Assembly: GCA_007713595.1 (NCBI GenBank)
Contig: VMRY01000015.1
Span: 2,244-66,243, forward strand
Origin: Sedimenticola thiotaurini
GTDB lineage: Bacteria; Pseudomonadota; Gammaproteobacteria; Chromatiales; Chromatiaceae
Length of the DNA: 64,000 bases
Direction of reading: 5' to 3'
Below, one piece after another: positions 38,895-40,142 of this stretch (position 1 is the first letter of the stretch; each line of letters starts with the position of its first letter). A program made the position numbers and the translations under genes. The notes below the pieces were generated by a model. The model saw only the letters and a list, made by a program, of their open reading frames with translations. It had not been told where the DNA came from and did not search any database.

Positions 38895-39989
38895 TCAACT
38901 GCGCATGGCATAAAAATCTTGTGCGAAGAGATCAAATCGCTGTGCTGAGATGGCATCACGAATGTTTCTCATCAAGGTTTGGTAATAGTGCAGATTATGA
39001 ATCGTATTCAAGCGGGCCCCGAGAATCTCGTTACAACGAGACAGGTGTCGCAGATAGCTTCGACTGTAATTCTGGCAGGTGTAGCAGTCACAATGGGGAT
39101 CCAGTGGACCCGTGTCATTCGCGTGTACGGCGTTACGAATCCGCACTACCCCTTCGTGGGTAAACAGATGACCATTACGCGCATTTCGGGTGGGCATGAC
39201 GCAGTCAAACATATCGATACCTCGACGAACGGCCTCAACAATATCCTCCGGTGTACCCACCCCCATCAGGTAATGGGGTTTATTGGCAGGCAGTCGGGGT
39301 GAAAGATAGTCCAATACTCGCCAGCGATCTTCAGGCGGCTCACCAACAGAAAGACCACCCACAGCATAGCCATCAAAGCCGATTTCAATTAATCCCTCCA
39401 GAGAGCGACCCCTAAGCGACTCATACACACCCCCCTGAACAATACCAAACAGGGCGGACGGGTTATCGCCATGCGCCTGTTTACTCCTCCCCGCCCAGCG
39501 CAGCGAGAGTTCCATCGATACCCGAGCCTCTGTTTCCGTGGCGGGATAGGGCGTGCACTCATCAAAAATCATCACGATATCCGAACCCAGCTTTCGCTGA
39601 ACAGCCATCGACTCTTCGGGGCCCATAAAGATGCGACTGCCATCAATGGGGGAGCGAAAATGGACACCCTCCTCGGTGATCTTGCGCATAGCACCCAGGC
39701 TAAACACCTGAAAACCACCCGAATCAGTCAGAATCGGCCGCTGCCAATGGGTGAAGTCATGCAGATCACCATGAGCGGAGATGATCTCCGTTCCGGGACG
39801 CAACATCAGATGAAAGGTGTTACCCAGGATAATCTCAGCCCCACTCGCCTCCAGCTCCTCGGGCGTCATGGCCTTCACTGTACCGTAGGTACCTACCGGC
39901 ATGAAAGCCGGGGTTTGTATTGTGCCGCGGGGAAAGGTTAATTGACCCCGGCGAGCAGCCCCATCGCTATTTTCAACTCTAAAAAGCAT
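38895..39989 (-). CDS. tgt: tRNA-guanine transglycosylase
   Basis: [20 protein letters not shown] and CDCYTC Zn site. Confidence 0.99.
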
Positions 39990-40021
39990 GATTCATATCA
40001 ACATAAATGAAATTTAATTTC

Positions 40022-40142
40022 TTGACACAGTGCAGCATATATTAGAAACTGGTCATGTACTGAAGAACAGCTCAGTACACACTCCTCCATCCTCCTTTGG
40101 TGGATATATTTAACGCGGCAATCCACTTGCCGCGTTTTTTTT
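40022..40142 (+). ncRNA. Candidate sRNA (about 40057-40142) antisense to the queA-tgt direction, with its putative promoter
   Basis: TTGACA at 40022; hairpin GTACTGA/TCAGTAC; hairpin presenting a CTCCTTT loop; GC-rich hairpin followed by T8 on the + strand. Confidence 0.6.

Follow-up and report, generated by a model that had tools for sequence, protein, structure and literature searches.

The queA-tgt spacer

We analysed a window of 64,000 nucleotides from Sedimenticola thiotaurini (GenBank assembly GCA_007713595.1, contig VMRY01000015.1), with attention to a candidate small RNA (sRNA) gene in the spacer between queA and tgt. The list of open reading frames (ORFs) places queA, tgt, yajC and a frame of 617 codons, taken from its position to be secD, on the minus strand around this spacer. 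Pfam matches to queA and tgt agree with the first-pass annotation, made from the letters of the sequence, that both flanking genes are on the minus strand. The spacer occupies 39990-40151 (162 bp), and the sRNA elements that it carries are on the plus strand. The features of the locus are as follows.

39988-40001, no strand assigned: putative FNR/CRP-like dyad ATGAT-TCAT-ATCAA, agreeing with TTGAT-N4-ATCAA at 9 of 10 positions
40022-40027, plus: -35 hexamer TTGACA, read from the sequence and kept in relatives
40038-40050, plus: promoter block TATATTA-GAAACT, with the -10 hexamer GAAACT at 40045-40050, 17 bp after the -35
40055-40058, plus: predicted transcription start, 5-8 nucleotides (nt) past the -10, placed by the position of the conserved promoter
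40056-40079, plus: 5' hairpin, UGUACUGA/UCAGUACA, 8 bp with an 8-nt loop (folds, covariation)
40080-40088, plus: CU-rich site 1, CACUCCUCC (fold; alignments to Rfam family RF02278 and to the Bordetella pertussis sRNA S17S)
40083-40103, plus: invariant 21-mer core UCCUCCAUCCUCCUUUGGUGG (DNA TCCTCCATCCTCCTTTGGTGG), with exact matches in at least 120 loci and invariant in alignment A1
40086-40104, plus: hairpin 2, stem UCCAUC/GGUGGA, loop CUCCUUU at 40092-40098 (folds)
40112-40142, plus: Rho-independent terminator AACGCGGCAA/TTGCCGCGTT, with a 10-bp GC-rich stem, a 5-nt loop and a U tract (terminator scan)
40152-41183, minus: queA (PF02547, 436 bits), convergent with the sRNA gene
38895-39989, minus: tgt (PF01702, 551 bits), divergent from the sRNA promoter
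38371-38703, minus: yajC (confirmed by Pfam)

Structure of the RNA

The plus strand from 40040 to 40143 folds at -33.2 kcal/mol, compared with -17.5 +/- 3.0 kcal/mol for shuffled sequences (z = -5.2), and none of the 200 shuffles folds as well. The arms of the 5' hairpin, at 40056-40063 and 40072-40079, form eight base pairs; the first-pass annotation had recognized this hairpin but counted seven pairs. The CU-rich stretch that it described, ACTCCTCCATCCTCCTTTGGTGGA (ACUCCUCCAUCCUCCUUUGGUGGA), is present at 40081-40104, and the core of the cassette, ACUCCUCCAUCCUCCUUUGGUGG, lies between the 5' hairpin and the intrinsic terminator. The 5' part of CACUCCUCC is single-stranded in the fold and is the counterpart of the 'Site 1' of S17S. 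The same fold presents UCCUUU in a hairpin loop, and homology with S17S gives CUCCUUU, which is the exposed anti-Shine-Dalgarno (anti-SD) loop that had been proposed. Within this region, CCUCCUUU at 40091-40098 is identical to the final bases of the anti-SD tail in the genome's own 16S rRNA. Since the 3' end of that rRNA is GGAUCACCUCCUUUA, the sRNA carries an exact copy of the tail. The genome also encodes Hfq.

The terminator stem-loop spans 40112-40136 and lies 15 nt past the queA stop codon. It is accompanied by eight T nucleotides at 40135-40142, the first two of which fall within the stem. The terminator scan calls this hairpin on the plus strand only, in keeping with the earlier claim that the U tract runs on the strand opposite to the flanking genes, and nothing on the minus strand meets the criteria of the scan. 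The minus-strand continuation past the hairpin reads UUAAAUAUAU, a poor U tract, so that transcripts from queA may plausibly run on through the sRNA gene.

Some variation in loops was observed among relatives. In L023 and L131 the 5' hairpin loop contains an additional UCCUCCUUU. The terminator loop is C-rich (CCCC or UCCCCC) in many loci, like the 'Site 3' of S17S, but that of the window copy is AUCCACU.

Genomic distribution

A BLAST search of the spacer against 61 related genomes located it in each of the other nine species of the genus; identity is 88-93% in seven of them. Nineteen further genera of the same family-level group match over approximately 40038-40142, which corresponds to the region from promoter to terminator. 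Both queA and tgt are missing from many of these matching loci. When 185,579 species genomes were scanned for the 21-mer TCCTCCATCCTCCTTTGGTGG, at least 120 loci matched. Among the matches listed, nearly all are from gammaproteobacterial sulfur oxidisers and two are betaproteobacterial; they include Chromatiaceae, Sedimenticola, Thiodiazotropha, Thiothrix and other Thiotrichales, Beggiatoa/Thiomargarita, Arenicellales, Thioalkalivibrio and other Ectothiorhodospiraceae, Piscirickettsiaceae and Poriferihabitaceae.

We examined the gene contexts of 149 loci that carry the core. The element is located between queA and tgt in 31 of these, always antisense, beside queA only in eight, always convergent, and beside tgt only in four. 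The remaining 106 loci are away from queA and tgt and carry the same cassette of core, promoter and terminator. Thus, the cassette is a gene in its own right, and its hairpin is not merely the terminator of queA.

A covariance model (R1) was built from 14 well-aligned members and used for wider searches, for which its E-values are rough. Within the host's order, matches at E <= 0.001 were obtained for 111 of 121 genomes (43 of 45 genera), with one to four copies per genome, and two copies are clear in the host genome itself. An even sample of the GTDB class Gammaproteobacteria, which includes the former Betaproteobacteria, gave matches at E <= 1e-4 for 97 of 301 genomes (87 of 271 genera). Sixteen of the weakest class-level matches were inspected: all have a terminator behind a CU-rich core and are true members. 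Variants of the core such as CUCCUCCACCCUCCUCCCUAAGGUGG are seen in model-based hits from other parts of the class. The CU-rich loop is conserved among relatives, which was one of the points on which the first-pass annotation had let its proposal stand or fall. The whole cassette recurs in hundreds of genomes, which places its features, the FNR-like dyad excepted, far beyond chance.

Promoter

The first-pass annotation had pointed to TTGACA at 40022 and to a weak -10 element, and both descriptions hold. In 105 of the 149 loci a TTGAC sequence precedes the core by 55-92 nt, and 89 of these have the exact TTGACA. The hexamer that begins 17 bases after this -35 element is GAAACT (40 loci), GAAAAT, GAAGAT or GATAAT, and an A at its second position together with a T at its sixth is present in 91 of the 105 loci. 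An AT-rich TATWTWA block directly precedes the -10 hexamer in relatives, and the betaproteobacterial members L083 and L123 carry the same promoter block. In relatives, both the conserved sequence and the 5' hairpin begin at the predicted start. Based on this conserved architecture, transcription is predicted to begin near 40055-40058 and to produce an RNA of 85-89 nt.

Three further observations concern this upstream region. The TATATTA-GAAAMT block (40038-40050 in the window) is kept in L083, L123 and about 100 other loci from both gamma and beta lineages, and could be a site for a shared regulator rather than only a -10 element. In members from Thiotrichales a ATTAGAGAAT block lies 7 nt farther upstream, and a canonical TATAAT comes after it. 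Six Thiodiazotropha-like and related loci (L065, L138, L144, L011, L013 and L024) have a palindrome, perfect or nearly so, about 5-10 bp upstream of the -35 element; it reads TTAGGGTTTTCCCTAA or GGGTTAACCC and is absent from the window. This palindrome may be the binding site of a regulator.

The dyad ATGAT-N4-ATCAA, from which anaerobic induction had been suggested, is indeed present at 39988-40001. Its centre is at about -62.5 relative to the predicted start, and it overlaps the tgt start codon (39987-39989). A class I FNR site is expected at about -61.5 or -41.5 and should be conserved with the promoter. Nine species of the genus keep the dyad, and most other loci lack it. A dyad with 8 of 10 matching positions is found at the equivalent position, -63.5, in a single further genus (L012). 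Overlap with the tgt start codon explains this conservation equally well. Sequences with one mismatch to TTGAT-N4-ATCAA are frequent in the window (7 versus 2.7 +/- 1.85 expected), so the motif is weak on its own. From these sequence comparisons, control of the sRNA promoter by FNR is neither supported nor excluded.

Covariation among relatives

When 102 distinct members were folded singly, 92% formed a hairpin in the 5' segment (free energy <= -5 kcal/mol), with a median of -12 kcal/mol and a median z of -4.9. All 102 formed the 3' terminator hairpin (<= -10 kcal/mol). Stem sequences and loop lengths vary widely in this set.

Model R1 was also used to align 102 matches from 100 loci (alignment A3). 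In this alignment, which is fitted to the structure of the model and therefore favours pairing, 93.9% of cells are standard pairs; shuffled controls reach 77%, and displacing the partners by one to three columns leaves 34-50%. Sixteen of the 22 pairs change on both sides, and by any measure none of 500 shuffles reaches the observed value. For the 5' hairpin, two-sided changes are found in all eight pairs across the 102 sequences, with 95-96% of cells paired. All eight modelled pairs of the terminator also covary (97% paired). Covariation in relatives, a check that had been proposed for the RNA, is therefore strong for the two outer helices. An alignment of 50 members with MAFFT and RNAalifold missed the 5' hairpin because its variable loop lengths misaligned the 3' arm, whereas single folds and the covariance-model alignment recovered it.

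Relationship to known sRNA families

The seven best-scoring hits of a permissive Rfam scan of 39800-40350 are all on the plus strand and all to sRNA families, some of which are CU-rich anti-SD sRNAs. The best is RF02278 (Betaproteobacteria_toxic_sRNA), which aligns over its full length (1-64) with 30.9 bits and E = 2.5e-4, below the gathering threshold of 50 bits. The comparison with Rfam that had been proposed earlier thus names a family but leaves the window copy under its cut-off. Weak hits are to NmsRb, ncS54, ncS16, mmgR and RsaE. Betaproteobacterial loci with the identical 21-mer pass the RF02278 cut-off (L083, 55.1 bits; L123, 51.8 bits), whereas nine named gammaproteobacterial loci fall below it.

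RF02278 covers the RNAs that Kimelman et al. 2012 described as toxic, namely the double-hairpin sRNAs ncS03, ncS05, ncS27 (NcS27/BdhR1) and ncS62 of Burkholderia cenocepacia (PMC4603805; PMC5688073). The window RNA has the architecture of this family as judged from folds, the terminator scan and the Rfam alignment: an unpaired CU-rich 5' site, a hairpin with a CU-rich loop and a Rho-independent terminator. Both share the core pattern CUCCUCCA...UCCU...UGGUGGA. Like the known members, the window RNA is encoded by a stand-alone intergenic gene with its own promoter, varied contexts and several copies per genome. Its sequence 5' of the core also has a parallel in ncS27, whose extra 5' sequence is processed away. 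However, the hairpin-2 loop region of the window copy (UCCAUC-CUCCUUU-GGUGGA) is shorter by 3 nt, and a structured 5' hairpin is constant in window-type genes. The host is a Chromatiales-type gammaproteobacterium, which is beyond the range, Betaproteobacteria, that the family name implies and that the S17 and H. seropedicae papers describe. In keeping with this placement, Tgt is closest among named relatives to that of metagenome-assembled genomes labelled Sedimenticola (86% and 82% identity), and loci from the same family-level group match named Thiocapsa records.

S17S of B. pertussis, an experimentally studied RNA, belongs with the RF02278 double-hairpin sRNAs (PMC11722255). Its construct reads TTGTCTCCTCCACCCTCCTCCTTTGGTGGATTT..., followed by a terminator (PMC11722255 supplement, aligned here with the window), and the two RNAs have in common CUCCUCCA and the 15-mer CCUCCUUUGGUGGAU. 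Both have two CU-rich sites, of which 'Site 1' is single-stranded and 'Site 2' is in a loop. The core of S17S has been reported to be 100% conserved across Betaproteobacteria (PMC11722255), which parallels the invariance described above. Several differences are also evident. S17S is cut by RNase E from a primary transcript of 190 nt, whereas a primary transcript of only about 87 nt is predicted for the window RNA. S17S has CCCUCC where the window has UCC. The S17 gene is located between BP3151 (glycosyltransferase) and coq7 and its RNA rises in the Bvg+ mode. The promoter of the window RNA is a different and conserved one, TTGACA-N17-GAAACT with TATATTA.

Two other systems resemble the window RNA. 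Neisseria NmsRa and NmsRb (RcoF1/2, NgncR_162/163; RF02877) likewise have three hairpins including a terminator, two unpaired CU-rich stretches that pair with the ribosome-binding sites of metabolic (tricarboxylic acid cycle) mRNAs, and sibling copies (PMC5362039). The weak Rfam alignment to this family spans all three helices. Its score of 20.9 bits (cut-off 52, E = 0.69) indicates that the window copy is not a member of RF02877, and the NmsR genes form a tandem pair, whereas the window holds one copy and the sibling is on a different contig. RsaE/RoxS of Firmicutes (RF01820) uses C-rich unpaired motifs to mask the Shine-Dalgarno sequences of central-metabolism mRNAs and can be viewed as a functional analogue. 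With 19.4 bits against a cut-off of 79, an unrelated lineage and CCCC motifs, no homology is claimed.

On the basis of these sequence comparisons, we classify the window RNA as a diverged gamma-type member of the RF02278 double-hairpin family, a relationship that the first-pass annotation had not recognized. Our literature search, whose coverage was incomplete, located no report of this RNA in Chromatiales or other gammaproteobacterial sulfur oxidisers.

Proposed function

We consider it very probable that 40022-40142 on the plus strand is an independent gene for an anti-SD sRNA of the RF02278 type, about 85-89 nt long, that acts in trans to repress translation with the help of Hfq. The first-pass annotation had proposed a stand-alone, trans-acting anti-SD RNA of about 86 nt on this strand. 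This view gains support from the 106 of 149 loci located elsewhere, from the covariation of both outer helices and from the core shared with S17S and RF02278.

In the mechanism that we envision, a sigma-70-type promoter (TTGACA-17 bp-GAAACT) would start transcription near 40055-40058 of an RNA with four parts: a protective 5' hairpin, the CU-rich strand CACUCCUCC, a hairpin presenting CUCCUUU and the intrinsic terminator. The CU-rich sites, as copies of the 16S anti-SD tail, would pair with the purine-rich ribosome-binding sites of a subset of mRNAs, probably assisted by Hfq. Pairing would block binding of the 30S subunit and lower both translation and mRNA stability. RNase E might also trim the RNA to the 'double-hairpin' core and thereby remove the 5' hairpin, as with NcS27 and S17.

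The comparisons above establish how the gene is built, its conservation, its covariation and the family to which it is related; expression, the participation of Hfq and RNase E, translational repression and the identity of targets are inferred by homology with studied relatives. S17S is Hfq-dependent and processed by RNase E, and it represses BP2158, a gene for a sigma-54 activator, through Site 1, as established with compensatory mutations (PMC11722255). Overexpression of ncS27 slows growth and silencing of its CU-rich region speeds growth, and 55-80% of its predicted interactions are on ribosome-binding sites (PMC4603805; PMC5688073).

Several observations weigh against this interpretation. 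The window copy scores below the RF02278 threshold. The -10 hexamer GAAACT is weak, matching only three of six positions, and for this reason a generic promoter scan finds no site at its threshold; the promoter is recognized only through its conservation across loci. The start site, the RNA length and expression are predictions. Hairpin 2 shows no covariation, as its pairs never vary in A3, and covariation therefore argues neither for nor against its pairing. Since loci L031-L150 were retrieved by their exact identity with the 21-mer, the apparent invariance of the core is in part circular. The bias of A3 towards pairing and the roughness of the R1 E-values should also be kept in mind.

Target predictions, which had been recommended as a further check, also fail to favour the proposal. 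They relied on crude gene calls (3507 ORFs) and considered duplexes at -35 to +15. Duplexes of the CU-rich seed at <= -16 kcal/mol number 357 sites, no better than the 193-597 obtained with shuffled-seed controls. Exact complements of at least 12 nt outside the sRNA loci number two, where chance alone would give about seven by our own estimate. Neither scan performs better than its controls, and no specific targets emerge. The longest complement of the core away from the sRNA loci is AAAGGAGGAUGG (12 nt), on the minus strand of contig C7 (reverse-complement 53404-53417). It abuts the GTG start of a gene for a 464-amino-acid Cache-domain (sCache_2) membrane protein, which is a candidate target only.

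Alternative explanations

One alternative is that the RNA works mainly in cis, either by perfect pairing with the spacer of a queA-tgt read-through mRNA or by collision with the polymerase that transcribes queA, and thereby uncouples or tunes expression of tgt-yajC-secDF. The gene is antisense at every queA-tgt locus and convergent with queA at eight more, and the absence of a called minus-strand terminator, together with the poor U tract UUAAAUAUAU, fits with such read-through. However, the family is conserved, with the same core, promoter and terminator, at the 106 loci away from queA and tgt, so interference with queA-tgt is unlikely to be its primary role. Studied relatives also occupy unrelated contexts, such as S17 between BP3151 and coq7, and act in trans (PMC11722255). 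We therefore regard cis-antisense action as an improbable main job for this RNA, although judging from the arrangement of the genes a cis effect could arise as a by-product.

A second possibility is that the mimic of the 16S tail serves mainly as a decoy rather than as a repressor of particular mRNAs, which titrates Hfq, a factor that binds anti-SD or SD sequences, or SD-like sequences themselves, and so throttles translation globally. Such a role would suit a core of at least 21 nt that is constant over orders and in beta and gamma lineages, which exceeds the 8 nt needed for a seed, and that holds the exact CCUCCUUU of the 16S tail. It would also suit the lack of specific targets that stand out in our scans and the 'toxic' label that the family owes to its cloning in E. 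coli (Kimelman 2012, cited through later papers). These points are countered by studies of relatives. S17S represses one mRNA directly and site-specifically, again with compensatory mutations, and its overexpression is non-toxic in E. coli BL21 (PMC11722255), and the predicted interactions of ncS27 concentrate on the ribosome-binding sites of particular functional classes (PMC4603805; PMC5688073). A decoy function thus appears quite unlikely to us.

Scarcely credible is the view that there is no sRNA, with the hairpin serving only as a (bidirectional) queA terminator and the TTGACA and CU-rich motifs reflecting chance or minus-strand use, for example with AAAGGAGGAUGGAGGAG as the ribosome-binding site of a small minus-strand ORF or as a standby site for tgt: the hairpin is indeed close behind the queA stop codon, and the minus strand does read AAAGGAGGATGGAGGAG with an ATG that opens a frame of 30 codons, but the U tract is on the plus strand only, the cassette occurs without queA at most loci, and covariation keeps RNA helices rather than codons.

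Two candidates of this kind were rejected. The 30-codon minus-strand ORF behind AAAGGAGG (AAGGAGG) varies from 3 to 38 codons and is frame-shifted even within the genus. A function solely as a queA terminator is contradicted by the U tract on the plus strand only and by the loci that lack queA.

Related sRNA candidates

A sibling sRNA gene is located on another contig of the same genome (C149:104116-104211, minus strand). Its promoter is TTGACT-N17-GAAGAT with the same ATATTAGA block, and its core is the variant ACUCCAUCCAUCCUCCUUUGGUGG. It also has a 5' hairpin and a terminator whose loop is UCCCCC, and it scores 38.3 bits with R1.

Two further CU-rich sRNA candidates were noted in this genome. 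The first (C72:12191-12243, plus strand; RF02278, 31.1 bits) has CUACUCCUCCUUUUGG and a terminator with a CCUCC loop. The 5' domain of this candidate, GCAGUAUCGAAGUAGCGC, is found again ahead of the core in L043, L072 and L106 (Sedimenticolaceae/Chromatiales), and this recurrence suggests a distinct subfamily. The second (C161:21643-21706, minus strand; RF02278, 26.6 bits) has a strong 5' hairpin and AUCCUCCUCUCUCU partly paired with AGAGAGA, followed by a terminator.

Tandem pairs of sRNA genes, like the Neisseria NmsR pair, were observed in other genomes: at L030 (1343-1421 and 1500-1581), at L167 (two copies), on contig C12 of genome G326 and on contig C85 of genome G332.

Significance

The kind of element described here and its mechanism are already known, and no new mechanism is revealed. 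What is new is this gene, a gamma-type variant that Rfam misses, and the reach of the family, with a conserved promoter motif, outside Betaproteobacteria. The genome gains a regulatory RNA gene that had been left unannotated, with at least one sibling on a different contig. Annotation pipelines miss the gene because it scores below the threshold of the Rfam model, and both the seed and the threshold of RF02278 could be widened.

A broader interpretation, which we offer tentatively and judge to be on the doubtful side, is that these RNAs form one ancient family that is present in about a third of GTDB Gammaproteobacteria families, including sulfur-oxidising and other basal gamma lineages as well as the former Betaproteobacteria, with a nearly frozen anti-SD core of at least 21 nt and its own promoter, TTGACA-N11-TATATTA-GAAAMT. 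If this is true, the family would be among the most widely conserved trans-acting sRNAs known, and its conservation would imply that its members respond to a common input signal and share a core regulon, or else that they throttle translation in general.

A family named as betaproteobacterial is nearly universal in Chromatiales-type sulfur bacteria and common in many other gamma lineages. Its gammaproteobacterial carriers include the chemosynthetic symbionts Thiodiazotropha and Sedimenticola, as well as Thiothrix, Beggiatoa/Thiomargarita, Thioalkalivibrio and Arenicellales. For organisms in which genetics is scarce, the results obtained with Bordetella S17 and Burkholderia NcS27 would, once RF02278 is widened, supply testable hypotheses about translational control.

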